Shown in pieces: positions 5,782 to 27,902 of a stretch of DNA of 64,000 nucleotides. The notes under the pieces are model-generated. The model was not told where the DNA came from, searched no databases, and was given only the letters and a program-made list of their open reading frames with translations. The position numbers and the translations under genes are program-made. The stretch is taken from assembly GCA_044892525.1 (NCBI GenBank), contig CM097885.1:2916001-2980000 (forward strand), in the 5' to 3' direction. Positions within the stretch are counted from its first letter, which is position 1, and every line of letters starts with the position of its first letter. Source of the DNA: Schmidtea polychroa (Eukaryota).

Positions 5782-5847
<66 letters not shown>

Positions 5848-5949
5848 TTACGACATATTGAGTGTGAGTAGTACCCTTGTGACTTGTTGAATGTGAGTAG
5901 TACATTTGTGTGCAGTACCCATAGGGGGACAGAATATCTTGTCGGATAG

Positions 5950-5981
<32 letters not shown>

Positions 5982-6199
5982 TATAATAATAATAATAATA
6001 ATAAAACTTAGAAAATAATAATATGTAATCAACGATTTAAACAAAATTATATTATTACGTATTCGATAATTAAAACAAAAATTATTAGTTCTAAAAATAT
6101 TTGGCATCGTTCTAAAAATATTAGGCATCGTTCTAAAAGTATGACGTAATCGTTCTAAAAATATTAGGCACCATTCTAAAAATATTTGGCATCGTTCTA

Positions 6200-6999
6200 A
6201 AAATATTAGACATCGATTACGTAATAGTTCTAAAAATATTAGGCATCATTCTTAAAATATTAGGCATCGTTCTAAAAGTATGACGTAATCGCTCTAAAAA
6301 TATTAGGCATCGTTCTAAAAATATTAGGCATCGATTTAAAAATATTAGGCATCGTTCTTAAAATATTAGGCATCGTTCTAAAAGTATGACGTAATCGCTC
6401 TAAAAATATTAGGCATCGTTCTAAAAATATTAGGCATCGATTTAAAAATATTAGGCATCGTTCTAAAAATATGATGAGTCATTGTCTTTGTTCTAAAAAT
6501 GTGATGAGTCATCGTATGATAAAAATCTATATCTCATTAGAAAGTTCTTGCACAGAGCTTTAAAATAAGCTATCGATTAATAAATTCGGATAATGGGAAC
6601 GATAACTTTTGGGATGAGAAAAAGTATGTCACCGCCCGGCCAATTAATAATATTTTGAATAATAATAATAATTTAACGTTGAAAAGATGGTGGTCATCAA
6701 TTGTTAATAACTTTGTCAATAATAATGATGATGATACCTTCTATGGATCAATCGAAAGGTCTTGGACTGAGCTTTAAGATGAGGTATCGTCCAATAAAAT
6801 CCGTTGGTGGGAACATTAATTTTTGGGATGAGAAAAAGTAGGGGCCATCCCGGCCAATTAATTAAAACAAAAAATTTAAAAAAAAAAAAAAAAAATGACC
6901 TTGACCTTTTATTTTAAAAAAAAATTTTTTTTCCGGGGGGGGGAGGGGGTATATGTGGTCTGGAGGGGACATGGTCTGGGGAGCCCACATCCTACTACT
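6200..6999 (-). repeat. Right TIR of the pPolB-only element
   Basis: Inverted copy of 575-1342; the 21-bp array continues further inward to ~6088. Confidence 0.93.
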
Positions 7000-7138
7000 C
7001 TAATAAAATACTTTTACACATCAAATTATTAAAAAAAAAAAATCAAAGAAATAAAACTGATAATTATAAAACGAAAAAGAGACTTTACAATAATTTCTAT
7101 TTTACAAAAATTCAAACAAGTCCGATCACAGAATTAAA

Positions 7139-10100
7139 TTAATCTTGTAGATGTTGATTGATGAGATCGGGATCTGCTCTTGATTGAATATCATTATCGT
7201 CATTATCAATGACATCAACCCCTAAATAATGACCATATGCAAAACTAGAGTTTTTCTCTACCCAAGCTCTTTTATCATCATGATTAGTTAAAGTAATCTT
7301 TGAGTTTTTAAAGGTAAAAAGCTGATGATTTCGGGTTCCTATTCTAGTCTGAGGTACAGAAATAACTGTGTTGTTGTTGTAACAGTCTAAATAGGATTGA
7401 TGTTTTATATCTGTACCTGGTAATTTTACGCCCTTAGCTCTCATAGTAGATTTATTTCCTAAAAGACTGTAGCACTTTGGTCGCAAGAAAACCCACTCAC
7501 TATATCCTACACCCTTACTCTCATCCTTAAACTTTCCTATAACTGAGTCGAGTCTCCTAGAATATAAAGGATGAGAGGGATCATAATTTGAGGTGTCTAA
7601 CAAGTCATCCGAAATCATCGCTGGCAAAAGAACGTCAAGCTTTACATTTTTGACCTCTAAGAAGAAACTATCGGTATCACCCGCAACTATATTTATATCA
7701 CAGTTAAACTGACTCCTATATTTTGCTAATTCTATGTACTGTAATTGATACATCCTTAGTTTGGATAAATCCAGCACTGATTGTCCGATGTAGCTGGGTC
7801 TATCCAAACATATAGACTCCTTATTGAGATGTACACCAAAAAGATCATCATCAATTTTGATGGTTTTTCTAAATGATGGTTTTGATGAATATGTAATTAA
7901 TTTTTCCGCGGAATTACATAGTCGTAAATTTAATCTCTTCTTAAGGTTTTCAACGGATTTACCGTACAAGCTATTATTATACAATTTGAATAAATCTCTG
8001 TACAGTTCACTGCTTGCTTCAGCTCTTAGCTGTGTATTTTTATTTATATAATTTTCAAAAATCGGTGCTTGCTTGAATTTTATAGCCCTATGGATGTGTA
8101 CAACTTTGGCACCAAGAGACAAATAAAGCTTGAGAAGCCTCCAATGAAGAACATGGTTCTTCTTTGGCCAATGCGTGAGCATCAACTTCTCAACTTTCGA
8201 ACCAGGCGGGCACATTTTCTCAGGAGCAAGAGGAAAGTCATTTAAAAAATCATGAAAAATTTCTGGAATATCTATATCCACTTCTATGGTATAACCATAG
8301 GGAAGGATTTCAATGTCAGCATTCATGCACTCAAGCAATACATCATTCAATCCATCATACACCCAAGTGAAATCAGCAAAAGGAAGATTTTGGCTAAGAG
8401 CCCAACCATACAGATTATTTATATCAATATATAATAATTCTGTATTATCAGAAGCAGCAACGTAATGTTTGTTAACAAATGTTAACCCACCACGTATTCC
8501 TCCTTCGTAAAAATTGAACATTTCCATGTCCTGTAAAAGTTCTATAGGCTTAGTTAATGTCATAAGCGCTGAGGCCCATGACATACCCGGAATACCATAA
8601 AAGTTTAGAGGTTCTAGACCATTGTATGCAATGGCCTTGGCACGAAATTGTTGGAAATAGTCCGCAAGGAGGAATACATCCAATTTTTGATAAGTTAACA
8701 TATAGTCAGCCAATTTAGTACAACGTTGTTGAGTCCAAATAAGTTGAGCCTTAGCATACTCATCTTCAGTAACACCAGACCAAATAGGAGGCAATTCATA
8801 AGTGGTTTCAAGTACATCCAAATCAGTCGCATAATCATAAGGAAATATGGCTTTAGCATCTATTATTAGCCTATCAAAAACCGACGAAGTCAAAGGAAGA
8901 TCAGTTAGAGTTTTTACAGCCTTAGCCAAAGAACAAATAACAAATTGTATGCTGTCGATAAAACGAACAGCTAATTTTTTAATGTGAACAATCATCGAGA
9001 TAAATTTCTCTGTGCTTGTGGGTATTATATTCAAATTCCAAGAAGGAAAGCCATTGAGACCATATTTTAAAATATGGTGTAAGTCGTAGCCTCGTAAATT
9101 ATGAAATACAATCGGCAGCTGTTTATAAATTCTGCGAGCCATATTACATTTCTTACAGGCTGCACCGAGATAATTACCAGTAAAATGGTCATGATCTCGA
9201 ACAGCAAGGGATAAAACCTTCTTGCAAAGATAGCAGTTCTTACAAGATTTGAATTGTCGTTCCTCAGCAAAAGTCATAGGTCCTAACCGTTTTTTCCCTT
9301 CAAGCTCATAATAAGGTAGGACAATTGTGACAGCAATTTGCTCTACTTTTTTAAGAAATTGAGGTATACAATCAAGACCATAAAACTCGTAATACGATTT
9401 TCTATTGTTAAGATTATTTATTAATAAAAGACCTGCTGAAATAGGTAAATGTATTTGATGATGTTTAACATCTTTAGGTAAAACCGATTCAAAATCGGAA
9501 TAAATAACAAAGGGTGGGGTGATTCTCTTTGAATGATTTTGAAACACTAAATATTTATTTTCGGGTAAAGTGTAAAGGGTTGTACCCGTTTGATTTTTAC
9601 TGCATAGGGCCACATGTTTAGTGAAAGCATTGTCCATTCGAAAACCGTTAAGACAATGTGGGCACCATTTGCATCTTATTTGAATACTACAGTCATTATT
9701 ACGATGGCAGTTCATTAAACGTGTAATGTTGGTCACTGCGGTGTAATGATAATTATCCTTATTTTCCAAGAGTAATAAATAAATTGGAGTACCGCCAGTA
9801 ACCGTTGATCTGTGAATTATACTTAAGTGGGGGTGTTTAAAAACATAGTCATTAGGAACCTGATCATCATCAACTATCACAGTAGGGGTATAAGCCAGAA
9901 CATTTATGGCGAGATTTAAGTCTAAATTTTTCTTTTCGAATTTAGGTATATTACACAATTTCATCGGACAATCCGTGACTTCATTGTAATTAAGAATATT
10001 TAAAAGATTTTCATATTTTGAAACTCTTTCAGGGTGGCTACCTATTTCATCTTTTTTCAAGAGCGCGAGAATACTATAAAGGAAACACTTATGATCCTTA

Positions 10101-11097
10101 TTTTTAACATTTATAATTGCTCCTTTAGATTTCAAATCTGCAGGTGTACGAATGTAACTATGACCAGATAGACGACAAATAGGAGCAAATTTAGTCAGAA
10201 TGAAATCGATCTCTAAGATATTAATTACTCTCCAGCCACTACCTAAATAGGTAAACTTTTCAATTTTTTCGTTTAACTTATTAACCCCCTCAATTAAAAG
10301 TTATCCGAAAAGATCTCGGCTTTATTTGAAAAGTAGTTGTCACGGATTTCCCCATCTTTTTCAAATCTTATAAGAATAGCGAATTGAATTTTGACGCTAC
10401 CCATGTTATTTATTTCAGTTGTTAACTTTTCAGTGATCCTATCCGTTATTATAATTTTAATTAATTGTGAATCGGCAATATCAAATCGAATAGTTCGAAT
10501 GGCGCCATTTAAATTTGATTCTATTATCGGCTCAATCACTAAAGATGATCCACCTATTTGATTTATAGTATTTATAGTATTATCATTATTTATATTTTCA
10601 TTTATAGTATTTATAGTATTAATATTATCATTTATAATATCATGATTTATAGTATATATAATATTATTACATTCGTCATCACTGAGTAGAATGACTTCAT
10701 TTTTAATAATTTCGTCGTCACTGATCTCAATGACTTCAGTTTTTATAATTTTATTTTTAATTTTAGACACCCTATGTTCAGCAGGTCTTTTATTAGATTT
10801 CTTTTTTGTGTTATTATTTAAAATATTTACAATTTCAATGTTATTCTTATTTATTATTTTAAACAGTTCTTGTTTATTTGTTTTGAAAGAATTTAAGTGC
10901 TGAGAATGTTGACTATAAAATTCCTTATACCTTACACTCTGGGAAGTTTTGCATATGGGGCAAATAAAAAAGTTGATGCCATTAAAAGGTTGGCGATAAT
11001 ATTTCTTCATATTTTTGTGGCATATCAAACTATGTCCGATTGACGATACACAGTATCGTGGGTATAATGGACCTGATAAATTATAAATATATATCAA
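7139..11097 (-). pseudogene. pPolB of Polinton A with a single 1-nt frameshift near 10297
   Basis: ORF 10294-11097 ends FSDNF*; adding one T gives FSDNFLIEGVNKLNEKIEKFTYLGSGW, collinear with the 1329-5300 protein. ORF 7139-10135 has all Exo/Pol motifs (YSDFES, DINNLYG, KLYNNSLYGK, GDTDSF). The 5' end is uncertain. Confidence 0.88.
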
Positions 11098-11227
11098 ATA
11101 TATTTATAAATTATTGAAAAATATTAATCATAAAAAGTGTATTCATAATGTAATTTTATTGTAGAGTTATTGCAATGTTTTTATTCAATATTATTATCAT
11201 GTATTTATTGATATTTATATGGGGCAT

Positions 11228-11395
11228 TTATTTTTCTATTTTAAACATTAATTTATCATGACTCCCATTTCGATAGTTAGTTTGAATATCGAAATAAACA
11301 AACAATTTGTTTTTGATATTTTTATATTTAATTATTTTGGGTACTTACTTTATAATTATATATCTGACAGTAATATGACAATTATAAGTGACAAT

Positions 11396-11449
<54 letters not shown>

Positions 11450-11564
11450 TTGTGCTAATATCGATAAATTTATTTTGGACAAAGTTCGTTATTTTCTCTA
11501 TTTGATTCTCATCGTTTCGTTTCTAATTTCATGTCAAAAACTTAGTATTATTATTATTATTATA

Positions 11565-11621
<57 letters not shown>

Positions 11622-12010
11622 CATTGTCACTTATATTTTTCATATTACTGTCAGATATATAATTATAAAGTAAGTACCCAAAATAATTAAATATAAAAAT
11701 ATCAAATACAAATTGTTTGTTTATTTCGATATTCAAACTAACTATCGAAATGGGATTCATGATAAATTAATGTTTAAAATAGAAAAATAATAATATTAAT
11801 ACTAAGTTTTTGATAATAAATTAAAAGCGAAACGATGAGAATCAAATAGAGAAAATAAGGAACTTTGTCCAAAATAAATTTGTCGATATTAGAACAAATT
11901 CAATAATATTTACATTAAACTCATCACATGTAAATGGACAAAGTTCGTTATTTTCTCTATTTGATTCTCAACGTTTCACTTTTAATTTATTATCAAAAAC
12001 TTAGTATTAT
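11228..12010. repeat. Compound inverted-repeat region upstream of Polinton A pPolB
   Basis: ~11228-11445 is inverted at ~11546-11790. The loop (~11447-11548) is inverted again at ~11798-11900 and partly repeated directly at ~11935-12010. Confidence 0.85.
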
Positions 12011-12455: not shown

Positions 12456-12667
12456 TCAGAAGACAATAGTTGCATGCTGACTGCAAACTATATGACGATA
12501 GAAAAAAAAATTAGCATAAGTATGTATATACTGTATATTTTATATACATACTTATATACATCATATACTGACATTATAGTATTAATATTTATTTATATAC
12601 ATTTAAAGCTTATAAAATAGACTTAAAAATAAACTTTATAAAAAATATACTTAAAAATAAATTAATA

Positions 12668-13078
12668 CTAACAAGTCTCCTCCAAATCTGTTTCCTCCCC
12701 AATAGAAACGGGGGCATTAATTTTTCTTTCCTCCTCAATAGAAACGGTGGCATCATTTTCTGTATCAATAATAATTTATTAAATAATTTAATAAATAAAT
12801 AAATAAATTTACCTAAAACATCGTCCTCAATAATAATAATTGAAGCATCGTCATCATCTTCAATTGTTATTGGTTCTAAGACAATAATAATATTAATAAC
12901 TCAAATTTAAAAAATTCACCGAAAATATGTTCCAAATCCAACAGTTCTTCATTTTCAGACACATCATACCAATCTAAATTATCTGAAAATAAATAATTAG
13001 AAATATTAATAATAATAATAATAAATTACCATTGCTGTTCGTTAAGAGAGCACGTAAAATATTACTGGAATTGTTCAT
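12668..13078 (-). CDS. Predicted 4-exon acidic microprotein (~88 aa), function unknown
   Basis: Exons 13078-13030, 12982-12920, 12875-12813 and 12759-12668 join through three phase-1 GT-AG introns (47, 44, 53 nt) into one open frame MNNSSNILRALL...DLEETC*. Confidence 0.6.
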
Positions 13079-13342
13079 CGAATTTTTGGATTTTGATTTT
13101 TCAGAGACAACTTTACGAACTTATATAAATAATAAGTTTATATAAACCTGTAAAATTGACATTTTAAACAAATATTTATTCTAATTACTTGCGAATCCGG
13201 TCAGTCTTAGAATAAAGTACAATTAAATTTATTATTATTATTACCATTACAATTACTATTAATCATGTACGGATCATGCACCGTGCATGACTGAATTTTT
13301 TAATATTCTAATAATATAAAACATATTTAAAAATAATAAAAC

Positions 13343-13473: not shown

Positions 13474-13853
13474 TTATTTAATAGACATAAGCCATCCTAA
13501 ACAATGTTGTCCGCACGTACGAGTTAAAGGGTGTTGATACATTGTTTTATTATATACAATAGGTTTGCCCATCGTTTGTAGTTTCGAAACCAATAAAGCA
13601 GGATAATAGAAACCCATAGGATCGAATACATGTATCTTATCTGGTTTCATATAGATTGCAATCCAATGCTCTCCGCCGAGATGAGATGAATGGGTATTGA
13701 CGATTATGGCTTGATTATTTTTCAAAAATGGTATTTTATCGAGAGGAAAAACTCCTAAAAATTCATTTCCTAATATTTGTTTTCCAATTCGATTAACCTG
13801 AACAGAACTATTTTAATAAATTAAACAGTATAAAAAAAAACAACTTACTCCAT
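13474..13853 (-). CDS. Adenain-like cysteine maturation protease (2 exons, ~112 aa)
   Basis: GEHWIA (His), VFDPMG (Asp), YQHPLTRTCGQHC (Gln/Cys). ATG GA at 13853-13849 plus a 41-nt GTAAGT...TAG intron (13848-13808) gives MDSVQVNRIGKQILGNEFLGVFPLDK. Confidence 0.88.
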
Positions 13854-13880
13854 GACAACTTTCTGTATTTCTGTATACAT

Positions 13881-15104
13881 TTATACCAGAACGGTTCTAT
13901 TTGCAGTAATTTGAACTTCATTTTCAAATACTCCATATATTATAACATGCACAGGTTCTGTAATAGCTTTTGCAAACTTTATATCTAATCGTAAATTTCC
14001 ATTTTGAGGTAATTGACTCTGATTCAAATCAAAATCTGGGGCCAAAACAAATGTAAAGAATGGATATTTGGATTTGAATTCTTCAAGAGTTATGCCGCAA
14101 TTCAAATTTTTATCTAAATATCCCATATTTCTAACAATACTCTGCATATATGTAGCACAGTAATTGTCACTATCGAAATCTTGAGTATATGTTTCTCGAT
14201 AATCAGTATTTTTCGACAAAGTTAGAGATGTAACACCAAAGGTTTTGAAAATTGAGCTGGAGGCACTATATGAACCATTATATTGTGCTTCACCTTGAAA
14301 TGTTACCAGAATAAAGTTTGGCATTCTTCTATCTCCAAATATTTGTTCCTTATAGAAGGAAGAAGCACCTTTGGCTATTGCAAATGAAACAATTTCTTTT
14401 GTTTTCAGAGGATAGATTGCATGCTTAGAATTAAGACCCAACTGATGACCTGCTAATACCGACGGATCAACTCGAACTCTTCTTACTAGTAATTTTGCAT
14501 CAACTAATTGACATATTGGTTGACCAGCACCACTAGTTAATGATAAAGAAGAATCGGTTCTTTTCAGTCTAATGTGTACATTGACTCCTGGAAGTAAATA
14601 TTTTGGTTGATCCATAAAATCGAGTTGTAATGATGAACACATGGTGAAAATCTTTGAGCCTTTAATCCATTTTTTCCGTTCGTCATCACTTGCTGCATAA
14701 CCCATAGGAGTAAGACATGTATTTTTGGTGTCGGTATTATAATTTAAAATAGTTTCTATTATCGCCTTGTGGATATATGTATTGTTGCCACCTTCAATCT
14801 TGATATTATTAAATCCAAGAATAGCATCTTTAAAAAGTGTATGAAACAAAAAATTATTAGGTATTGTAGCATCAGCATCACCCAAAGCCTTTTTATCTTT
14901 ATCTATAACCTTGATTTGAACAGTCAATAAAGTATCATTCAAATCTAAATATTCTGTTTGAGAACCATTGATGTAAAATTCTACATCATTTCTACTATCG
15001 GTAATTGAATTCATAGGAAAAACTTCCTCAAATGCCCCAAATTCTATTACAGCCTGGGGCGATGGTCTATCAAATATGCATAATTCAGATTTACCACAAA
15101 TCAT
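13881..15104 (-). CDS. Major capsid protein (double jelly-roll), Polinton A
   Basis: 407 aa. KSELCIF...EFYI.G...EYLDLNDTLL start and GNLRLDIKFA...VIIYGVFENEVQI end are typical of Polinton major capsid proteins. Lies next to the protease. Confidence 0.88.
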   Translation of the reverse strand: MICGKSELCIFDRPSPQAVIEFGAFEEVFPMNSITDSRNDVEFYINGSQTEYLDLNDTLLTVQIKVIDKDKKALGDADATIPNNFLFHTLFKDAILGFNNIKIEGGNNTYIHKAIIETILNYNTDTKNTCLTPMGYAASDDERKKWIKGSKIFTMCSSLQLDFMDQPKYLLPGVNVHIRLKRTDSSLSLTSGAGQPICQLVDAKLLVRRVRVDPSVLAGHQLGLNSKHAIYPLKTKEIVSFAIAKGASSFYKEQIFGDRRMPNFILVTFQGEAQYNGSYSASSSIFKTFGVTSLTLSKNTDYRETYTQDFDSDNYCATYMQSIVRNMGYLDKNLNCGITLEEFKSKYPFFTFVLAPDFDLNQSQLPQNGNLRLDIKFAKAITEPVHVIIYGVFENEVQITANRTVLV

Positions 15105-15469
15105 TTTGCAAATATAGTTCCATGTCCTTTCATTCGTTTGTTTATACGTGATATTCCATGTCTTTTACGTTTTGGAGCTGGAGCTGGAGCTGGAGGTTTT
15201 TCTTTTTGAAACATGCCTGCAACCCCGGGTAAAACTTTCCCTAATTCAGCTAAAGCATTTGATTTTAGAGATGGTAATATTTTCTGTTCATTCATAATAA
15301 CATCTTTTGCAGTTTTCATACCAAAACTACCAATACGTTTAAGAATAGGCAATGCAAATCTACCAGTTGTTCTCAACCATCCCGATCCGTACTGTTTACC
15401 AATAAAATATGGTAATTCACCACCAGATTGGCTGTCACTATACATACTAATAATATCAGAATTAGCCAT
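15101..15469 (-). CDS. Small virion core or membrane-active protein (PZ-like)
   Basis: QSGG / QYGSGW motifs followed by an amphipathic basic helix (WLRTTGRFALPILKRIG) and a basic C-terminus. Overlaps the penton and capsid genes. Confidence 0.65.
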   Translation of the reverse strand: MANSDIISMYSDSQSGGELPYFIGKQYGSGWLRTTGRFALPILKRIGSFGMKTAKDVIMNEQKILPSLKSNALAELGKVLPGVAGMFQKEKPPAPAPAPKRKRHGISRINKRMKGHGTIFAK

Positions 15470-16529
15470 CTACTTTACGAAAATGTAATGTCAAATGAGT
15501 TTTTGAACCTTTTGGAAAGTTTATAAGTTTTCCACTATCGTCACGAATATTTATTTCTATATTGTTTATACATGAGCTTGCTATTGGTAAATACATGGGA
15601 TTATCGATATTTATATTGACAACTTCATCATGTTCATATTTTCCAATCCATACCGATTTCAAAAGAGGAACACTGGAATCACCAACAATTATGGGTTCGA
15701 TAATGTTAGTATATATGAACATTTGTTGATGATGTTCTAGTATTCTTGGTTTGCGTATACCAGTCGATTTTTCTCTATATTTTTGCTTATCTAATCCAAG
15801 TGAATTTGCCAAATTTTTATCAAATGTAACTTCGCAAATATCCTCATTCAAACTGAAGGTAAACATCAAATCTTTCACAATTTCCAAATTTTTAAATATG
15901 TGTGAACAATTGAACTTTAAATATTTAAGTAATACATCAAGTTTATCAAAATATAATTCATCAGCAAAGGTGAATGATTCTTCAACTTCATCATTATACG
16001 ACACATATATTTTGATTTCTTCTTTCACTATACTGTTTGCTTCAAATAGATTAAAACGTAATAAATACTCGGTCTCCATAACAATATTTTTCAGCTTATT
16101 GCAACCCATTCGTTTGGCATCTTCAATAGTTTCGAATGTTATTGTAAATGGTTTAAAATCACAACTGATATTTAATCCATCCTTGTAAAATATATAGCAA
16201 TGCGAATCTAATATTTGGTTCGGAATATGATATGTTTTATCATAATTACTAATAATAAAGATACCGCTACATGTTTTCACAATATTCCTTTTGAAATCAA
16301 TCTTACATTGACTATAAAATGGGAATGTGTTGTACACGAATGTAAAATCTTGCAGTGCAACTTCCCAGTCACCATTTAGAGAAATCGGATTCTGGAGATT
16401 GACCATAAATTTACTGGCTTGATTGTCTGGATGAATTAATGGGCAACTATTGCTCGGTAAAATAGTATAAAAATTCACTTTACTAGGTCCTTTGCTGATA
16501 TCCATGACGGGTTTTGATAACCATGCCAT
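15462..16529 (-). CDS. Minor capsid protein (penton)
   Basis: FYTILPSNS...PDN..SKF...L..PISLNGDWEVAL at the N-terminus; YTNIIEP..VGDS.VPLL...IEINIRDDSG.LINF.....LTLHF at the C-terminus. Confidence 0.85.
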   Translation of the reverse strand: MAWLSKPVMDISKGPSKVNFYTILPSNSCPLIHPDNQASKFMVNLQNPISLNGDWEVALQDFTFVYNTFPFYSQCKIDFKRNIVKTCSGIFIISNYDKTYHIPNQILDSHCYIFYKDGLNISCDFKPFTITFETIEDAKRMGCNKLKNIVMETEYLLRFNLFEANSIVKEEIKIYVSYNDEVEESFTFADELYFDKLDVLLKYLKFNCSHIFKNLEIVKDLMFTFSLNEDICEVTFDKNLANSLGLDKQKYREKSTGIRKPRILEHHQQMFIYTNIIEPIIVGDSSVPLLKSVWIGKYEHDEVVNINIDNPMYLPIASSCINNIEINIRDDSGKLINFPKGSKTHLTLHFRKVDG

Positions 16530-17104
16530 TTGACATAGTATTGTTTATCCTTGCCGACCTTTTTAGTTTTCAATATTTTTTGAATTCTAAATACCTTTGG
16601 AGGAGGAATGACTTGTAATTCCTGCTCATAAAATTTCCCTTGTACAATATTATTATCACTGTCTTTGATGACATACATTACAGGATTCTGTTTAGTATTT
16701 ATTTTTGAAATTACAAAGACTTCATCACTCCAATTTGTATCAAAATTTTTAATAAATGGTGATGCACTAATTTTACTAATTCTAACACGATCACCGACTT
16801 TATATTTAGGTTTTGCAATTTTTACAGATTTCTTAGAATAGATTGTTTTTGATGTAATATCAACCGGTCTCAATCCATTCAGTCCTCGATGTGATGAATG
16901 ATTATAACTTGTTATTATTTTCGGTAAAGCATTTACCCATTTTTTATTACCTTGATGCACGAATAATTTCTTTAATCTATCTCTCAGTGTTCGATTAAAT
17001 CTTTCAACATGGGCAGCTTTGTATTGAGAATGTACCGAGTAGTGATTTATTTTCAGTTTATCGAGGATTTGCTTAACTTTGCTATTGTAGAATTCTTTAC
17101 CTAA

Positions 17105-17154
<50 letters not shown>

Positions 17155-17542
17155 CCAAATCTGTTTGCAAGTTATTAGGATGTCCATCTTTAAATAAAAT
17201 ATTAATTGCCTTTGACATTTCATCTGCAGATTTTGCCTTGACTGGTATTGCTCGTGCAAACCTGCTGAATACATTAATACATGTTAAAATATATTTATTC
17301 CCATTGTTAATTTTCGAATACGGTATCATCTCCATCAAATCCATTTGCCATAAATCGTCAATACCAAATGTTTTATAGGCTCTTGTTGGAAATCTTTTCC
17401 GCATTGGTTTGTTCAAACTGTACGCAAGCTGATCTGATAACCACTTCTGGGTTTCTTTTTTCGAATTCGGAACTCTTTTCTTTAATTTTGCCACTCCACC
17501 GAAACCGGCTTCGTCTTCTGGGTTCGTCCAAATCTTCTCCAT
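16475..17542 (-). CDS. Retroviral-like (rve) DDE integrase with C-terminal chromodomain; contains a 54-nt intron
   Basis: WQMDL, LQTDLG|KEFYN, VERFNRTL; chromodomain IQKIL...YYVKWHGY..PSWI. The poly-Ile stretch corresponds to a GT...AG intron at 17154-17101. Confidence 0.92.
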
Positions 17543-17603
17543 TACAGCAAGAAGATTTAAAATTAAAATTTAAATTAGGTAATGAAGGATTAGCACCCAT
17601 TGT

Positions 17604-18137
17604 TTATGATTGATTTCCTACAACTCCACCTAATAATGATAATGCCAGAGGTATCAATGCACCAATAAATCCACCTTGTTGTTTATATATAATTTTCCTC
17701 ATTTGCTTACGATTTTTATTATTTACTAATGATAACAAAGGTTTCCTATGTTTGCTCAATAAATGCTTTTTTGATTTACTGATTTTAATTTTGCCTTTGA
17801 CTACTTTAAGTATAATATTGAGTAAATCATCGACAACAAAATTTGGGAATGATTGCAATATATTCATTCTTTTCATACTCGGGGCCTTTAACAATGCATT
17901 AAAAAATGGAAAACTGCGATGATTTTTAATTACTTTATTACCGGCTTTACGGGTTTTACGGGTTTCACGTTTAGGTTTAGGATTTTTCGAAATAAGATTC
18001 ATTGCAGAGAAATTTTCAGTTACAAGTTTTTTAGATGGTGTATAACTAGTTGTTGGTGGAACCTTTGGAACTTTAATACTCTTTTTAATACTTTTTCTTA
18101 ATTTCCTAATATTTTTCACCCTTGCTTTTAGAAACAT
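17604..18137 (-). CDS. Basic core-like Polinton protein with C-terminal QQGGF plus hydrophobic tail
   Basis: Lys/Arg-rich, 177 aa, ends YKQQGGFIGALIPLALSLLGG. Lies between the ATPase and the integrase. Confidence 0.7.
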   Translation of the reverse strand: MFLKARVKNIRKLRKSIKKSIKVPKVPPTTSYTPSKKLVTENFSAMNLISKNPKPKRETRKTRKAGNKVIKNHRSFPFFNALLKAPSMKRMNILQSFPNFVVDDLLNIILKVVKGKIKISKSKKHLLSKHRKPLLSLVNNKNRKQMRKIIYKQQGGFIGALIPLALSLLGGVVGNQS

Positions 18138-18155
18138 TATTATTCATAGAGGTTT

Positions 18156-18782
18156 TCAACTTTGTTTATAAACCATGGCACCTTTTGGGTTGAAAATATC
18201 TGTTTTTACTCGTAAATCATCGGGACATTGTTGTGTGAAATCAAGAAATATATATCCATGAGGTATTTTTGTAGCATCTTGAAATGCACTGATAAGAAAA
18301 TTACGATTGTTAGGGTATGCTTGACGTGCAAGAAAATCAATCACTGTTGCATCTCTAGGATTCTTAAAAATAACTAAATATTGTACATTTAAATTACGTG
18401 TTCGATGTGCACCACCTTGATGAAATAGATTTTGAGTTATAAAAATAACAGTTACACCAACGTGTCTACTGATTTTAGTAAATAAATTATTGAAATTCTT
18501 TTCTTTATTAGCTTCTTGATACAAGTCATCAATAATTATGACATCCCCCTTCTTTAGTCTACTGGACCAATTTTTATCAAATCCCTCTACTATTTTCATA
18601 TTTTTCAATTTACAGAAACTTGATTGAGTCAATCCGTGTTCTTGATAAGCACCTCGATGCCAATAAATTTTGTTAAATTTTGATTTAAATAAATGTGATT
18701 TTAGTAATTTGCAAACAAACAAAGTTTTGCCGCTACCACTTGGTCCGACTATTTGATATACAGCATCATTTCTTAGTTCCAT
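18156..18782 (-). CDS. A32/FtsK-like genome-packaging ATPase, Polinton A
   Basis: Walker A GPSGSGKT, Walker B IIIDD, FTKISRH, ITQNLF, YLVIFKNPRD. Confidence 0.93.
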   Translation of the reverse strand: MELRNDAVYQIVGPSGSGKTLFVCKLLKSHLFKSKFNKIYWHRGAYQEHGLTQSSFCKLKNMKIVEGFDKNWSSRLKKGDVIIIDDLYQEANKEKNFNNLFTKISRHVGVTVIFITQNLFHQGGAHRTRNLNVQYLVIFKNPRDATVIDFLARQAYPNNRNFLISAFQDATKIPHGYIFLDFTQQCPDDLRVKTDIFNPKGAMVYKQS

Positions 18783-18899
18783 TTTTAATATTTATTTAAA
18801 AATTAATTTTGTTTATATCGTAAAGAATAAATTGATTTCATTACTCTATAATATAATATATATATATAGATATTTGATTTTTATAAATATTCAGTAGAA

Positions 18900-19412
18900 A
18901 TGTTGACAAATATTAATTATAGAGGTCGTGTGTCTTTGGAAACTGTTGGTATGATGAATTTCCCCAAGTGTAAACCACAACAATATGTCGACAAAACTGG
19001 AAAATATACTATTATATTTTTCAAAAATGGTAAATGTCGTATAATGGGTTGTAAGAAGCCTATCGAATTCAAGAATTTGCAATATAATATCAAAGATATT
19101 CAAGTTCAAAGTCTTACTATAGCTACCAAGGTTGAACAATCTATTAATTTGAATAATTTAGCAAAGTTATTAGATGGAGATTGTATATATGAGCCTGAAT
19201 TATTTCCCGCTCTGCGTTATACAAAATATAATCCACTATGTGTAAATATATTTTCGAGTGGTAAAATAGTTGTACTAGGTATTAAAAATTTAGATTTTCA
19301 TACTATTGTTGAAGGAATTATAAATGATGTAAAGAATTTGATTGGATCTTTAACAATTTCTTCAAATATAAGTAATGAGGATTTGCTTGAATATTTATTC
19401 AACAATGATTGA
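18900..19412 (+). CDS. TATA-binding protein (TBP)-like protein encoded inside Polinton A
   Basis: C-terminal repeat IQVQSL...INLNNLA...YEPELFPALRY...VNIFSSGKIVVLG matches TBP YEPELFPGLIY...LIFVSGKVVLTG. N-terminal repeat IIFFKNGKCRIMG matches LIFSSGKMVCTG. Confidence 0.88.
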   Translation: MLTNINYRGRVSLETVGMMNFPKCKPQQYVDKTGKYTIIFFKNGKCRIMGCKKPIEFKNLQYNIKDIQVQSLTIATKVEQSINLNNLAKLLDGDCIYEPELFPALRYTKYNPLCVNIFSSGKIVVLGIKNLDFHTIVEGIINDVKNLIGSLTISSNISNEDLLEYLFNND

Positions 19413-19773
19413 ACATGAAGGTAACTGTTTTTATTTTAAATTTACTGATTTTTGTTTAGAAACTATACTAAAAATTTTGATTGATAAAATTGAAGATTTT
19501 TATCCGAATTTGAACAATTCCTTAATGTATTGTGCTCCAGAAGTTGTGTTTTACAAAATTTATGAAATAACTGGAATAAATGTAATAGATTTAATTCATA
19601 TGGATCATGCTACGATTACATGTTATACCGATGATGTTGAAAATTGTGATTTTTGTAAAAATAATATGCAGAATACTTGTGGGGATGATAGTTGTACATG
19701 TTTTGTAAATCTACAGAAACGAGAAATAATTCATGCATTACTTGTGGAATTGCGAAAAAATGTATTGTTGTAA
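19405..19773 (+). CDS. Cys-rich hypothetical protein overlapping the TBP-like stop codon
   Basis: In-frame ATG at 19405 overlaps the TBP-like 3' end; CDFC...CGDDSCTC. An apparent homologue follows the second TBP-like gene. Confidence 0.65.
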   Translation: MIEHEGNCFYFKFTDFCLETILKILIDKIEDFYPNLNNSLMYCAPEVVFYKIYEITGINVIDLIHMDHATITCYTDDVENCDFCKNNMQNTCGDDSCTCFVNLQKREIIHALLVELRKNVLL

Positions 19774-19975
19774 TAAAATATAATTATATTTGTTTTGTGA
19801 TAACCTTAATTAACCTATAATATTTCTTTGTGTACAATAAATCATTTCAGACTTTGTTATTTAGCATAAAATGAACTAGTTGATCACGTTTTGATCATGC
19901 CTGTCACTTGAAACTTGTTTACAATGAAATTAGTATAAAATATCTGGTTCAAATTATTAAATATTATAACTACAA

Positions 19976-20567
19976 ATGGATAATCAAATTACAGGTTTGT
20001 TGTCGTTTACACATATTCCATTTATTAGTTTTTTAATCTAGGAGTTTTGAAGAGAAAAAATGCAGATGCCGCTCAGGAATTCGGAAAACGGAAATTTAAA
20101 GAAGCGACATTATCCTTGGAAACCTTGGTCAATGTTCGAGTGGATACAAAAAAGCCAGTCGAATTCATGCAATACAAACTAAATTATTTGTATTGTCCAA
20201 TTTCCTATACATTTAAGGTAAGTTTCTATAAATTATTTTGGATTTTATTATTATTATTTATTGTTAGGAACCAGTAACTCTGGAAAAATGTTTCTACAAT
20301 GTGAGACTTTCCAAAATCAAGTTTCATGACAAGATGCTATTGGGACAATTATTTCAGAGGATCAATGAAAATATTGAATTTGATGATGAAGATATGTTCA
20401 TTAGAAACGATTTGGATATGATTCCCAATGGTGGTAAGATGAGCAAAATAACCTGCATGGTTACCATATTAATTCAAGGGTATAATGTAAGCAGAGACCG
20501 AATCAAACCAATTTGGAAAATTATAAAAGCCGAAGATAAGTTTGAAGAGGAACATTGTTCATGTTAA
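19976..20567 (+). CDS. Predicted 3-exon protein (~164 aa), possibly an OB-fold ssDNA-binding protein
   Basis: Exons 19976-19994, 20042-20217 and 20268-20567; GT-AG introns of 47 and 50 nt join the two track ORFs in frame. The function is a guess from the C-terminal beta-strand pattern. Confidence 0.65.
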
Positions 20568-20639
20568 ATTTATTTAATACATCTTTATTAGTGTTTTGGT
20601 GTTTTTAAATCATTGAAAATAACTAAAGTTTCAAATTTA

Positions 20640-21024
20640 TTAATCTTCAATACAATCTCTTTTCATTATATTTTCAACAATATGATCAATACAATTAGTA
20701 GAAACAATAGATTCATCTTCTTTAGATTCATTTGGTAATTTATCTGTTGTAGAATTCTCAATACATGACTTAAGTTCTTCACTAGGCAAATCAGTATATT
20801 CATCTTCTTGTTGGGAAATATTTTCAGATTCATATGACATATCATCTTCATTAATTTCATCGTCTGAATACGGCCATTTTAATTTCTCTGGAACATTCGT
20901 AAATTCTCTAATTTTTACATTAGATATTTCCTCTAATTTTTCAATCAAAAAGTTGATTATATATGCTAAATAAAAAAAAAAGAATTAATAAACATAAAAT
21001 TCATATTTTACCTTTTTCCGACAT
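20640..21024 (-). CDS. Predicted 2-exon acidic hypothetical protein
   Basis: ATG TCG GAA AAA G (21024-21012), 46-nt GT-AG intron (21011-20966), then in frame into ORF 20640-20948. Confidence 0.55.
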
Positions 21025-22209: not shown

Positions 22210-22327
22210 AGACCTTAAAAAAAAAAATTTTTGACCTTGACCTTAAAAATTTGACCTTGACCTTAAAAAATTAGACCTTGACCTGTCCTGGATGTGACAT
22301 GTCCTGGAGGTGACACATCTTACTACT
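22210..22327 (-). repeat. Right terminus of Polinton A with repeated TGACCTTGACCT motifs
   Basis: Ends ACTACT. TGACCTTGACCT at 22232 and 22252, variant at 22273. Tandem GTCCTGGA..TGACA repeats. Confidence 0.85.
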
Positions 22328-22670
22328 CATAAAGACTCAAGACTCCACAGATTTTAGTATTCCAAGGTTGAACCTGTAAAGAATTAAAAGTGAAAGGCTT
22401 TAAAAGATAATCTTCAACTTCTTTTGTAGGTTTAATACCAAAAGAATCAAAGTATATAGATCTTTTGAATATAGAAACCCAATGAGAGCCTTGAGAATTA
22501 GAGTTTTGATAATTTATAATTATATTATCAGGGTTTGTCTTGGAGTCTAGTTCATCATTCATTAATATTTTTATTTTTAAATTTAAATAATTTGCATAAT
22601 CTTTTAAATCGAAATTTGTTTTTGCATTTATCCCAAATGTTTTTAAAAAATCTAAGATTGAAGGATTCAT
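22328..22670 (-). pseudogene. Adenain-like protease of Polinton B, truncated by Polinton A
   Basis: GSHWVS, YFDSFG, QVQPWNTKICG. The frame runs into the AGTAG terminus of Polinton A (TAT G|AG TAG). Confidence 0.88.
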
Positions 22671-22689
22671 TTTTTAGTTGTATATTTAT

Positions 22690-23517
22690 TACTTTGTATA
22701 TTTATTACTTTGTATATTTCCCGAATTTATCTTTTGAAATCATTCCCTCTTTTAATAAATTTTTTGAAATCTTTAAAATATCAGAATCTAAATTATTATG
22801 ACCTGCTTTTTTTAGCTGACAAGAGTTTTCTTAATTCAATAAAAAGATTTATAGGGTTAATCCCATCACCTTTAGTTTCTAGTTCTTTTAAATGTTTCTT
22901 TAAATCTTGAATATGTTTTGCTTTTTGACCAGCTTTTACTAATTCTATTAAATTTAAATATTTTTTAATTTCTTTAATATTATCGGTTGGATAACCACAA
23001 ATTAATCTATAAAAATCATCTGTAAATTCCCAGTCTAAAAATTCATTATTATAAACATTTAGAGAGTGGAGGCGTGATTGATTTTCTGCATTTGAATATA
23101 GGGTAAAGATTTCACTATTAATTGTTATTGTTTGAAATCCTTTGATTGTAAGATTAAATGCAGGTTTAATTGTAGGACTCAAGTTTGGATTAATTTTAGG
23201 ATTTAGTACAAGAGGTTTTGTTTTTAAAAGCATTTCTTCTTCATCAACACCAGAAATTCTTCTACGCTTTCTTTGATTCCTTTGATCTTCGAACCTCTGA
23301 TCTTCTATAGCTTTCACTTCTATAAATTCTATAGCTCTTCTTGGTTTGGGGGTTTTGGTTCTAGGGTTTTCAAGGCTTTAAGAGTTGGTTCTTGTTGTTG
23401 TAATATTTCTTCATTTAATACTATAGATTCAAGATTTTGGGTTAAATCTTTTTTATTATACTTGTCTTGTTCTTGTTGTATTTTTTTTAAAAGAGCTAAT
23501 CTTTCTTCATATACCAT
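22690..23517 (-). pseudogene. Fragmented hypothetical Polinton B protein
   Basis: ORFs 23329-23517 and 22796-23317 are in different frames. The C-terminus continues KKAGHNN after another frameshift. Confidence 0.45.
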
Positions 23518-23539
23518 TTTTTATACCATTTTATGGGAT

Positions 23540-24065
23540 GGGATTTACTCTCTCGAAGGGCTTCAAGTATAAACCTTTACCATTTTTAACTTTACAGGTG
23601 CAGCCATTCTTTAAAGATTTGAGGATTTTTTTTAAAAGCATCTTTCCCCTCAAATGATTCTGGAATTTGGTTTTTAAAAAAATCATTTAAACCTCTACCT
23701 TTATAAGGATCAAGGTATAGGCCTGCTCCTGTTACACCCTTTCCCTTTGCTTTTGCTTCACCCTTCATTTTATCAATTTCAGTTTGTAGTTTTTCTTTTT
23801 CTAGGTCTGTCTTTTGAGCTTCTTTAGCTTTTTGAACTGTGGTTGCAATTCCTCCGGCTATTCCAGCAGCACCTGATAAACCTGCAATAATTGCTGGTAT
23901 TAAAGCTGCTAGAGGAAGAAATCCGCCTTGCTTGCTTCCCTTTGCTTGCTCCTCTTTGATTTTCTCTTTTACATGTTTTCCAATAAAATATTTTTTACCA
24001 GAGATTACTACTGATTTATTCTTGTCTGAATTTATTAGTTCTTGCAAAGATTCTTCAGTTGTCAT
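23540..24065 (-). CDS. Core-like protein with KQGGFLPL hydrophobic segment and GxGLYL repeats (3' frameshift)
   Basis: KQGGFLPLAALIPAIIAGLSG...GAGLYLDPYKGRGL; a second GKGLYLKP motif appears in a shifted frame. Confidence 0.6.
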
Positions 24066-24111
24066 TTTATAATAAATAAAAAAGAGAATAAATAAAAAAA
24101 AGAGAATAAAA

Positions 24112-24915
24112 ATGGATGTTCGGAGACCTGCGGATACCTGGAAACCGATTTTAAATAGACACAAGAGTAAATTTAATAATAAGGTATTTCCTGATAATTT
24201 TAGATGTTTAATTGTTGGATCTTCTGGATGTGGAAAGAATGTTCTTCTTTTGAGAATGCTACTTGAAGATGGTTTCTTGGATTATAATAATTTTATCTTT
24301 TATTCTACAACCATAAATCAACCAGAATTACAACTTTTGAAATGTGGATTTGAAAATAAATTAACTAAAAAAGCTATAATTGATATTTTTAAAAATCAAC
24401 TCGAATGTCCTGAAGAAGTTTTTCATCCTTGTGATATGGTTGATTGGTATAAGGAAAAGATTTTAGAATCAGATATTAGTAATAAAAATGATTACATTTA
24501 TCAGGGTGAAGGTATTAAAGTTTTATTCTCTAATAAACCTGAAGATGTTTTACATTGTGATTTACTTCCTAGGAATAAAAAGAATTTAATTATATTTGAT
24601 GATGTTGTTAATATGAAAAACCAAGAGATTCAAAAGAGTTACTTTACTCGAGGACATCATAATAATTGTAATGTTATTTATATATCTCAAACTTATTATG
24701 CTTTAGATAAAAACTCTATAAGAAATAATTCTAATTGTTTTATATTTTTTAAATTAGATAAGCGTGATAAGAATATGATTTATAATGATTTATTTTCAAA
24801 TGTTGAACCCGATAAGAACATGTTTGACATGTTTGTTGATAATCATTGGAAAGAAAAATATAATTATATTTATCTTGATAGGGAAGAAGCTAAAATGTGG
24901 AAAAGTCTATTCTAA
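24112..24915 (+). CDS. A32-like packaging ATPase, Polinton B (motifs partly degenerate)
   Basis: GSSGCGKN (GKT expected), LIIFDD, FTRGHHNN (RGRH expected), ISQTY, SIRNN. Confidence 0.88.
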   Translation: MDVRRPADTWKPILNRHKSKFNNKVFPDNFRCLIVGSSGCGKNVLLLRMLLEDGFLDYNNFIFYSTTINQPELQLLKCGFENKLTKKAIIDIFKNQLECPEEVFHPCDMVDWYKEKILESDISNKNDYIYQGEGIKVLFSNKPEDVLHCDLLPRNKKNLIIFDDVVNMKNQEIQKSYFTRGHHNNCNVIYISQTYYALDKNSIRNNSNCFIFFKLDKRDKNMIYNDLFSNVEPDKNMFDMFVDNHWKEKYNYIYLDREEAKMWKSLF

Positions 24916-24938
24916 GGGGTCTATTCTAGGGGTCTATT

Positions 24939-25748
24939 CTAGAAATCTGTTTTCTGTAGTTCCTTATTATAAAATCTACCTAATATTTTTTCATTATTTA
25001 AATCGATGATGCTATATGTTATTGGAATTGTATAATGTATTTTATTTATAATAAAAATTTCATTTGTCCATTTTGCTGTGAATCCTTTTTCAAATTTATT
25101 TTTATATTTAAATATTCTTACACGTTGACCAATTTTAAACTTTGGTTTTTCAATAACATCATTTTCAACATTTACCACTCTAACTGTTTCAGGATTTAAG
25201 GAAGCATTTAAAGGTGTTGATTTTATAGAACTATGTACATCATTATTATATTCATTTACAATCTTTTGTAACAATTCATTGTTCCATTTTTGTTTTCCAA
25301 TAGCAGTAAAATATTTCCACATTTTATTTTTTAATGTTCTATTTAATCTTTCAACTACGACTGCTTTTCCTTCGTTTTCTGTTGAATATAATTTAATATC
25401 ATTTTCATTTGAAAACTTGTAAAAAACTTTGTTATAAAATTCTGTTCCTTTATCACACCATAAATATTTTGGAATTCTTTGATATTCTTCAAATATATTT
25501 TCAAATGCTTCTGTAATAGAATATCCTGTTTCATTTTCTAAACATCTTGCAAAAGCAAATCTTGTATATAAATCTATTACAGTTAAAATTATTTTATATT
25601 TTTCAGGGTCTGATGATTTGGACATAAAGACTAAATCAGCAGACCATGTTTGATCTTTTTCATGTACTTGAACTTGCAAATATTTTTTATTTTTTCTAAA
25701 TTCATGGTGCAATTCGTTGGCATATTTTATTTGTGATTCTGTTGGTTG
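24939..25748 (-). CDS. rve DDE integrase of Polinton B
   Basis: ANELHHEFRK, WSADL, WCDKGTEFYN, VERLNRTLK, KFKIGQRVRI, GRFYNKELQ. No own ATG; in frame with the upstream PLA2 domain. Confidence 0.9.
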   Translation of the reverse strand, partial: QPTESQIKYANELHHEFRKNKKYLQVQVHEKDQTWSADLVFMSKSSDPEKYKIILTVIDLYTRFAFARCLENETGYSITEAFENIFEEYQRIPKYLWCDKGTEFYNKVFYKFSNENDIKLYSTENEGKAVVVERLNRTLKNKMWKYFTAIGKQKWNNELLQKIVNEYNNDVHSSIKSTPLNASLNPETVRVVNVENDVIEKPKFKIGQRVRIFKYKNKFEKGFTAKWTNEIFIINKIHYTIPITYSIIDLNNEKILGRFYNKELQKTDF

Positions 25749-26357
25749 TTAATTTGTAGAATTAGTCTTGGATATATTCTCGAGGGATCTTTCAACGTCT
25801 GCTTGTTCAATAATCTTTTTATTAGCAACATCTTTTGCTATCCTTGGTAGACCTGCTCCTATGAAGATCTTACCTTTCATTGCTAATTTAACTAGAGCTC
25901 TTTGAATCTTTTCTTGAGTTGATGGATTTTCTATATTATTTAAATCATGTATTAAATTAACATCTGCAACATGTCTATCTCTAAGATTTGTTGAGTTGTA
26001 AGCAATATCATGTTTTAAAGCTGCTTGATCAATTCTATTTATTGGTTCTTGTCCTTATTTAGGATTATTATTTTCATCTAGACGAATATCTAATCTAGTT
26101 CCTGGTCCAGTATAATTTTGCGAGAATAAATGTCTTTCACCTGGATACTTTTCAGAGGTGAAAGGTTTTATTATTGTAGATGTAAGATTTGAAGATTGAA
26201 GATCTCCACCGGTCTGTTGTTGTGCTTCTTTCTCTATTTGGGGTTGGTGTTGTTGTGTTTCTTTCTCTGTATGCTTTTTAGTTTTTAAGTGTTTAGCTTT
26301 GTGATATTTTGTTACTTCACAGTTGCACACTTGGCATTGATAATAATGAGAGGTCAT
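25749..26357 (-). pseudogene. Zn-finger plus parvovirus-type phospholipase A2 domain with an internal TAA
   Basis: CQVC...H..H-type finger; NYTGPGT Ca-binding loop. Past TAA 26057-26055 the frame reads GQEPINRIDQAALKHDIAY...DRHVAD (catalytic HD). Confidence 0.85.
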
Positions 26358-26556
26358 TTATTTGATCATATTTTGTGTTTACTTTTCTTAGTTCTTGTTT
26401 TAAGATTCTCATCTTTACTAATCTTCTATCGGCAATCTCAACTGCTCTACGATATTGTTCTCGATAGTATTCATTTGCAGCTGTTAATTCTTGAATATAT
26501 TTCACTGGATTCTGCATTCTTTCTAGGCGATTATTTTTTGCTGTTTCAGTATCCAT
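26317..26556 (-). CDS. Small coiled-coil hypothetical protein
   Basis: 79-aa ATG ORF packed between the capsid and PLA2 genes on the same strand. Confidence 0.4.
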   Translation of the reverse strand: MDTETAKNNRLERMQNPVKYIQELTAANEYYREQYRRAVEIADRRLVKMRILKQELRKVNTKYDQINDLSLLSMPSVQL

Positions 26557-26609
26557 TTTTAGGTATTAATTTTTAGGGTGTGTTGGGTTTATGGGTGATG
26601 GGTTAGGGA

Positions 26610-27902
26610 TTATAGATCTCCTCTAACATTTTCAACAATTGAAATCTTTCCACCTGATAGTTTCATTTCTATTTTCTTTTCTTCTAGGATTAATACATGT
26701 ACTTTGGCTTTAAAATTTGAATCCTTTGTTATGTGAAGTGTAATGTCTACATTATTTATAGCTAGTCGATCATCTTGATCTGAAACATTTATACAAAATA
26801 TAGAATATAAATTTTTGAAATCTTCTAGGCTTAATTGTGGTTCAACTTTAAAATCTTGACATGTTTCAATATAATTTAGATATGGGAATATGTTTTCATT
26901 TTTTTCAATATTAAATTCCATTCTATTTATTGGATAATAAGAACTATTTAATTGAATTTGGATTGTTTTTAAATTATCATCTCCAATCTTTTGTATAAAT
27001 AGGTTGTTATTTTTTTGAAAGGAAGAATCTGTTTCTTTGAATCCAATTAAAATATATCTTGGTCTGTATGCTAAATTTGCAACCTTTATAGAATAAGTTG
27101 AACCCTCTGTCATGGAAAATTCACTACAGATTCTATTTAAATAATTTACATTTATAGACTTGTTGGAATTTAATCTTTCAAGGAGTTTAATTTCAGCAAG
27201 AGGGTTTAATGTCCATTCGGGTACATGTAATTCAAGTGTTGATAATTTTAGTTTAGCTTTTGTATCTGCAGCTCCAAAAAATAATCTTTTATCATCTTCT
27301 ACTCTGTTACAAATTAATTCTATAAAAACATTATGGAGTACACGATTATAATTTTGAAGGAATCCAAATAAATGTTTTAATTCAAAATAACCTTCAAATT
27401 TTTTAGACTTGTAGAATTCAAGTCTTTTACAATAACCATAATTCGCATCTATTCCTTCTTTATCTAAATCTCCTTTATTATTATCTGGAATCCAACCTGA
27501 TAATTCTCCATATTCATTTCTATAATCATAACCAGTTAAAATAAAATTTAACATTGTAGAATATATACCTGGATGTAATATGGTTTCAATTTCTGATGAT
27601 CCTAGTTTTAATCTCATGTTGTTGAATAAATTTGGAAAGAAATTATTTTCAAGGGTTTTATTTTTGTTGACTTCAATTTCTAATTCAATTTTGTAATATA
27701 ATTTTGCATTACAAATGTCTATAGGATTTGAAGTTTGAAGGGATTGAAAGACTATATCACCTGCACGATTTAAGTTTGCAATAGATCCTGAAGTTGGAGA
27801 TATTTTAAGTACATCATTTTTCTTGATATCATGAGTAAATTCTTTATTATTATCGAGATTAAATTTATTTTTTTCTTGAATTTTAAGATTTATATTATTC
27901 AT
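26610..27902 (-). CDS. Major capsid protein (double jelly-roll), Polinton B
   Basis: 430 aa; NLNRAGDIVF, NNFFPNLF..MRLKLGSSEIE...HPG..STM, PRYILIGF, LNSSYYP, SIFCINVS. Unlike the Polinton A capsid protein. Confidence 0.8.
   Translation of the reverse strand: MNNINLKIQEKNKFNLDNNKEFTHDIKKNDVLKISPTSGSIANLNRAGDIVFQSLQTSNPIDICNAKLYYKIELEIEVNKNKTLENNFFPNLFNNMRLKLGSSEIETILHPGIYSTMLNFILTGYDYRNEYGELSGWIPDNNKGDLDKEGIDANYGYCKRLEFYKSKKFEGYFELKHLFGFLQNYNRVLHNVFIELICNRVEDDKRLFFGAADTKAKLKLSTLELHVPEWTLNPLAEIKLLERLNSNKSINVNYLNRICSEFSMTEGSTYSIKVANLAYRPRYILIGFKETDSSFQKNNNLFIQKIGDDNLKTIQIQLNSSYYPINRMEFNIEKNENIFPYLNYIETCQDFKVEPQLSLEDFKNLYSIFCINVSDQDDRLAINNVDITLHITKDSNFKAKVHVLILEEKKIEMKLSGGKISIVENVRGDL

Follow-up and report, generated by a model that had tools for sequence, protein, structure and literature searches.

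The window, as we call the 64,000 nucleotides of Schmidtea polychroa DNA analyzed here, harbors a retroviral-type integrase gene on its minus strand, accompanied by genes for a protein-primed DNA polymerase B (pPolB), a packaging ATPase and a protease (Table 1). As this is the gene combination by which Polinton/Maverick elements are recognized, the integrase-bearing element is, as far as its genes tell, a Polinton/Maverick. Moreover, the order of protease, A32 ATPase, putative capsid genes, TBP-like gene and pPolB matches that of related metagenome contigs. The polymerase is presumed from its motifs and the Endonuclease_7 domain, and the gene listed as major capsid protein is putatively taken to be such from its position. 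The TBP-like gene, which is also found in related loci, and the ATPase gene are arranged head to head, and a second short TBP-like gene (52% identical to the first) lies at 59918-60406 on the minus strand. For the accessory open reading frame (ORF), no homologue was detected in the fetched related loci.

Table 1 Features of the integrase-bearing element in the window (positions relative to the first nucleotide of the window)
Feature	Position	Strand	Remarks
Protein-primed DNA polymerase B (pPolB)	7139..11103	-	Endonuclease_7 domain; frame broken near 10295-10300
Adenain-type cysteine protease, two exons	13474..13853	-	Pfam Peptidase_C5; phases open
Protease intron (candidate), GTAAGT..TAG	13808..13848	-	41 nt; 5 nt past ATG
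Putative major capsid protein	13881..15104	-	Label inferred from position; no Pfam match
Putative minor capsid protein	15462..16529	-	Label inferred; no Pfam match
Integrase exon 2	16475..17100	-	Remaining catalytic core with Glu180, C-terminal beta domains, chromodomain-like end
GGTA direct repeat, right copy	17098..17101	-	4 bp; overlaps acceptor
Intron candidate of the integrase gene	17101..17154	-	Phase 1, GT-AG; 4% GC; donor GTATTA
GGTA direct repeat, left copy	17152..17155	-	4 bp; overlaps donor
Integrase exon 1, from Met1 up to and including base 1 of the Gly130 codon	17155..17542	-	388 nt; Asp68, Asp128
A32-type packaging ATPase	18156..18782	-	Pfam Pox_A32
Short TBP-like gene	18870..19412	+	Pfam TBP, E 2.5e-17; found in related loci
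Accessory ORF, three exons open in carried phase	19976..20567	+	Intron candidates 19995-20041 (47 nt) and 20218-20267 (50 nt)

The termini of the integrase-bearing element were not located within the window. Its pPolB frame is disrupted, unlike that of the related locus L007 and that of a second element nested just past the break, both of which carry an unbroken pPolB reading frame. Hence, the integrase-bearing copy may be dead. The second element (575-6999, 6.4 kb) possesses long terminal inverted repeats with AGTAGT ends and is flanked by a 6-bp target duplication (569-574 and 7000-7005). Its sole long ORF encodes a pPolB (1326-5300) with 75% identity to that of the adjacent Polinton, and the element is thus a Polinton derivative with the polymerase as its only major gene, inserted into or beside a Polinton. 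Upstream of the pPolB gene of the integrase-bearing element, overlapping near-perfect inverted repeats occur amid (ATT)n tracts (11228-11917). A second, divergent Polinton at 22300-27926 carries DJR capsid and ATPase genes; its integrase is 33% identical, has no insert at the site discussed below and is split by stops. Public sequencing runs, four of which were compared as contigs with window positions 13480-20700, hold very many diverged copies (68,087 matching contigs with 85-100% identity in run X1). One contig of run X11 covering 19268-20700 spans the two intron candidates of the accessory ORF without gaps and, thus, behaves as DNA.

The integrase gene is interrupted by 54 nt which, read on the minus strand from 17154 to 17101, consist of GT, sixteen ATT units (17152..17105) and a final TTAG. 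This segment splits the codon of Gly130 in phase 1 and follows Asp128 of the QTD motif at a distance of two residues. The integrase ORF (17542..16475) runs open through it, so that retention would add 18 residues, 16 of them isoleucine, without any stop. An alignment gap spans exactly these 18 residues in the best 120 of 979 homologue matches, the flanks of the insert are colinear with uninterrupted homologues, and both exons are open in the carried phase. The insert starts and ends with GT and AG, as U2-type introns do. An initial annotation of this DNA had already described a 54-nt GT/ATT/AG segment two residues past the second catalytic Asp as in frame and stop-free; both statements hold, with GT(ATT)16TTAG as the exact reading, and the CDKGTEFYN motif to which it had been compared is indeed present in the second integrase, which reads WCDKGTEFYN. 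Its placement of the insert in the active-site loop has to be corrected, as that term denotes the flexible loop preceding the helix of the catalytic Glu, while the insert is located in the turn after the strand bearing the second Asp.

Only one of the 30 runs of at least five ATT units in the window has GT immediately before and AG just after it, and no second GT-(ATT)n-AG unit exists among these runs. The ends of the insert are part of a GGTA direct repeat, which is still perfect across its 4 bp but so short that splice consensus may partly impose it. Since both terminal dinucleotides follow from this repeat, the GT-AG ends on their own are weak evidence for more than chance. Adenosines are abundant in the insert, and a YTRAY word is absent from the region 8-35 nt before its AG. 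YTRAY represents the branch-point consensus, which is degenerate in many animals.

Catalytic roles of the integrase residues (Table 1) were assigned by alignment to retroviral integrases. Pfam matches of the protein to rve and to the chromodomain remain under the curated cut-offs. An AlphaFold model based on a 136-row alignment reached a pLDDT of 89 and resembles foamy-virus integrase (E 4e-14). When present, the insert is modeled as a loop after the strand ending at Asp128, with residues 134-145 having a pLDDT below 50 and the core staying folded. As the insert appears only as a low-confidence loop, the model gives no demonstration that retention unfolds the core. By way of homologue P0001, the insert site aligns directly behind the TDNG motif of retroviral integrases, and the turn following this motif is presumably in contact with target DNA. 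Of 112 highly conserved columns, the window integrase preserves 110 (the median among homologues being 97%), and 38-39 of the 40 located in exon 1 are preserved in the five interrupted relatives described below. This conservation of the exons fits integrase genes that stay functional with the interruption present. At residue 90 (about 17273-17275, minus strand), the window integrase has Asn where 199 of 204 stored homologues have Asp. Both 98% identical sisters carry Asn90 too, so this residue marks the subfamily.

The initial annotation had held that a lack of spliced reads together with sister copies lacking the insert would mark it as a one-off inactivating slippage; as to the sister copies, the relatives tell otherwise. 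The window's own integrase was not found in the protein collection searched. A total of 240 stored proteins extend across the site; 229 of them show no interruption, nine diverge and two end there. Five of the nine diverging proteins are closest or near-closest relatives of the window integrase and leave the integrase sequence exactly after Leu-Gly; these are predicted proteins, which may stop where a contig stops or where a gene model was joined. P0174 (98% identical, ENA-derived) continues from this Gly with an Ile-rich tail like the read-through of the window copy and ends 17 residues on. P0138 (JGI) and P0175 (Logan), both 74-76% identical, stem from different sources and share the same end Lys-Ile-Ile-Ile, four residues past the Gly, while P0143 (74%) ends in Asn one residue past it. 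In P0134 (98%), this Gly is followed directly by the C-terminal 14 residues of the protein, which from its sequence is taken as a deletion or gene-model artefact and not as read-through. Three proteins that end at the site without a foreign tail (P0145, P0156, P0234) were left out of the support, and P0240, P0241 and P0250 were set aside as distant. These relatives were obtained by searching for short proteins stopping near the site, with a later search seeded with those sequences. The pile-up of fragment ends at the site is only modest, as seven of 66 fall on residues 129-131 compared with five on residues 218-220. Given that P0174, P0134, P0138, P0175 and P0143 all break at this Gly, the insert is, judged from these sequences, not a one-off.

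Among the 120 best full-length matches (of 979 matches), neither a sister of at least 90% identity nor a protein bearing the insert in frame occurs; the top full-length homologue reaches 77%, and the homologues of 77-78% identity were compared as proteins, not as DNA. At the DNA level, 35 metagenome loci were examined; 30 of these span the site, and every one of the 30 is uninterrupted, with an identity of at most 65%. Two of three genome-contig loci are uninterrupted as well, with the third entering unrelated sequence just before the site. At L038:253-290, a 70% relative on a MAG contig passes into unrelated sequence just before the insert site. The breaks of P0134 and L038 may reflect a fragile site, chimeric contigs or gene-model joins. 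In ten intronless clusters with 119 members, none is broken at the site; 105 are uninterrupted, 12 lack the site and two are false motif matches. No relative was detected among viral contigs by protein scan, and the DNA pattern of the donor side gave six matches there, none of them with a Polinton protein.

Further intron candidates are present in this element and around it. Another nine GT-AG segments, with lengths of 41-53 nt, were picked out of the window by eye and measured, and the 54-nt insert is comparable in size to these candidates, which are themselves deduced from the letters. The phase test covered three genes besides the integrase, namely the protease, the accessory ORF starting at 19976 and a TRAF-like gene of the host, and showed their exons to be open in the carried phase. 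A YTRAY word occurs in seven of the nine candidates and is absent from two. The host TRAF-like gene (55479-56898, plus strand), with a RING, a zinc finger, a coiled coil and a MATH-like end recognized by eye, contains three introns of 42-49 nt with the weak donors GTAAAA, GTTTGA and GTGATT and serves as yardstick for host introns; its Atlas neighbors belong to various animals, and a literature search on intron size gave no result. Downstream of the protease, a small acidic gene (12660-13090, minus strand), for which no homologue was detected in the fetched loci, displays three GT-AG candidates of 47, 44 and 53 nt near 12760-13029. For the protease intron, a positional GTAAGT match with a length of 37-47 nt exists in all seven related loci carrying a protease (L007, L008, L009, L014, L015, L021 and L034), which marks it as an apparently older, clade-wide spliceosomal intron. 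In L007, it terminates in (ATT)5 TAG, and (ATT)3-5 is also found inside further introns, both in this element and in a relative. Hence, the clade already employs short AT-rich introns, in which internal ATT tracts are usual.

In terms of polarity, the insert is probably a gain, since the covering metagenome loci lack it in their DNA. A tree of 22 rows and 129 columns places the interrupted proteins in two supported groups within an unresolved fork. A single origin is recovered in 4% of 200 bootstrap trees and most trees need two changes, while one origin is not rejected (p-AU 0.43); accordingly, one gain and two parallel gains are both possible on these sequences. The description of the insert as microsatellite-made could not be polarized, as the Ile-rich tail of P0174 implies an ATT-rich sequence that is apparently interrupted and (ATT)3-5 also occurs in the other introns named above. 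The pure repeat may be either the original filler or the result of later homogenization.

Taken together, the insert is probably a young spliceosomal intron of the U2 type in a Polinton/Maverick subfamily that bears introns, and it would be removed constitutively by the host spliceosome. The spliceosomal intron proposed in the initial annotation is thus also our best reading, in view of the phase, the open exons and the break at the same Gly in close relatives. Points against splicing are the weak donor GTATTA, the missing YTRAY word and the possibly dead copy. Most likely, the insert would represent an ordinary, recently gained intron rather than a special on/off switch.

Such an intron may have arisen at the exonic Gly-Lys codons G|GT AAR, which would provide a latent donor, AG|GT being common there. 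In the DNA of intronless relatives, this Gly is encoded by GGT in 12 of 32 loci, and AGGT is present in eight. One distant family contains 12 database proteins which break one residue after QTD and then continue with differing sequences, many of which resemble other Polinton genes; these breaks could be gene models using the latent donor. A staggered break or short duplication together with AT-rich filler would have created both splice ends at once, and as the GGTA repeat bounds the insert, a single short duplication could account for the splice dinucleotides at either end. The host spliceosome, handling AT-rich introns of 37-54 nt with weak donors, would then have accepted the new intron. Later slippage may have altered the ATT tract, with the window copy happening to be a multiple of three and stop-free. 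Retention would probably yield a crippled enzyme in the window copy and a shortened one in the relatives, and nothing indicates a use for either product. For the neointrons of Daphnia pulex, the available text of the corresponding report describes AT-rich sequences, end repeats of 4-12 bp and frequent parallel gains, and stop-free introns are rare there among those with a length divisible by three (two of 27) (PMC4202315). A more far-reaching version, which we regard as speculative and on balance doubtful, considers the Gly-Lys codons past the second Asp a hot spot of intron birth. Two Polinton lineages would have independently gained different ATT-rich introns by latent-site duplication, copies in one genome would keep a series of stages, from intronless copies to fresh and decayed repeats in all three frames, and slippage would tune splicing and, hence, integrase output.

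The stop-free frame had given rise to the idea that integrase activity is controlled by retention, with the retained form avoiding nonsense-mediated decay (NMD). In analogy to P-element IVS3, splicing would then be restricted to germline or stem cells, and the retained message would give a stable inactive or dominant-negative integrase escaping NMD. The in-frame, stop-free retained form of the window copy, the weak donor and the AlphaFold model, in which the core stays folded with the insert looped out so that a stable retained form is possible, are in line with this, as is the P-element precedent itself (PMC7776569, available text). However, (ATT)n is free of stops in all frames, and a stop can come solely from the terminal TAG, in one of three frames, so that the open frame stems from the repeat itself and amounts to roughly a one-in-three accident of length. 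P0174, P0138, P0175 and P0143, i.e., a 98% sister and three relatives of about 75% identity, end 17, 4, 4 and 1 residues past the Gly, and read-through therefore most likely hits a stop there. The retained-form product is thus not conserved across copies, being full-length in the window and ending 1-17 residues past the Gly in four relatives; neither is any in-frame insert-bearing protein present among the 120 best full-length matches. Furthermore, the retained P-element product is truncated, so escape from NMD by frame is not its logic (PMC7776569, available text). Regulated retention is hence improbable, and the proposed control with NMD escape is not supported.

A different possibility is that the insert is never spliced and inactivates the gene, as repair filler or microsatellite at a fragile site in dead or non-autonomous copies which are mobilized in trans, the GT-AG ends being a by-product of GGTA. 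Indeed, the end repeat yields both splice dinucleotides for free, (ATT)n runs are common in the window, the copy combines a disrupted polymerase frame with a nested element, and P0134 and L038 break at or beside the same site. Nevertheless, we consider it unlikely, because the conserved columns are kept across both exons, two groups that differ by about 25% share the residue of the break and preserve their exon-1 columns, the length is within the host intron size range, and an intact full-length sister that could supply integrase is missing from the best 120 of 979 matches. Very improbable is an old clade intron that was lost in most relatives, with the pure repeat as late homogenization; this intron would be spliced but neither young nor microsatellite-made. 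The clade does have an old conserved protease intron, a single origin of both insert-bearing groups is compatible with the tree test, and the P0174 tail suggests a more complex intron sequence. Yet the insert is absent from the DNA of all 30 covering metagenome loci and of two of three genome-contig loci. Among the loci without it are all seven in which the protease intron is retained or which belong to the same contig set. In addition, a DNA-replicating element would have no obvious route to repeated precise loss, and the 4-bp end repeat is still perfect. Finally, public-run contigs seem to be cut at the repeat, as would suit an assembly artefact at a low-complexity tract, but the ENA-derived 98% protein has its Ile-rich tail at the same residue, and miscounted repeats would alter the length of the insert, not its presence; such an artefact is hardly to be credited.

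If read as a young spliced intron, the insert comes close to the simplest possible intron, composed of two splice ends and a trinucleotide repeat, and it retains the footprint of its origin. Together with the older protease intron, it suggests that genes of this clade rely on the host spliceosome. Animal Polintons are usually treated as intronless, so that intron-blind annotation rates such copies as broken, and intron-blind callers would also miss the protease intron. If junction reads confirm splicing, this multi-copy family opens a direct view of intron gain, possibly in parallel, at one site. Should the hot-spot version be true, a selfish viral element would offer a within-genome natural experiment on intron birth from microsatellite filler. 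A splicing switch, if real, would matter more, but the evidence does not favor one.

In the literature, no report of a spliceosomal intron in an animal Polinton integrase was found, although Repbase reports, supplements and subscription papers may contain one; likewise, the available text of papers on nematode Polintons, adintoviruses and cryptophytes does not mention spliceosomal introns in these genes. With animal Polinton/Maverick elements of the adintovirus type, the window element shares the DDE integrase with chromodomain-like end, pPolB, A32 ATPase, adenain protease, putative capsid genes and gene order, while its TBP-like gene is a difference from the Polinton/Maverick elements compared. 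Intact vertebrate Mavericks are reported as intronless in the available text (PMC8097293), whereas the window element has intron candidates in its integrase, protease and accessory genes. Integrase-type transposase genes with one to four canonical spliceosomal introns each are described for Ginger1 in the text available (PMC2836005), but these are cut-and-paste elements without viral genes. In dinoflagellates, Maverick/Polinton-like elements are reported to contain introners, i.e., host-type introns inside integrated elements (PMC11957031). In contrast to introners, which are transposon-derived intron families, the window intron has neither a terminal inverted repeat nor unique sequence, and the window contains no further copy of it. 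P-element IVS3 is alike in being a short intron that lies within the recombinase gene of a DNA transposon and has to be removed before the full enzyme can be made. An exonic silencer and piRNAs regulate its retention by tissue, and the retained form gives a truncated repressor of 66 kDa (PMC7776569), while the in-frame state of the window insert is not conserved. Closest in character are the Daphnia pulex neointrons, which, as far as the available text goes, are also short, very AT-rich and canonical GT-AG introns with a 4-bp end repeat (PMC4202315). Here, by comparison, the putatively spliced intron candidate resides in a gene of a multi-copy mobile element and consists of a near-pure trinucleotide repeat.
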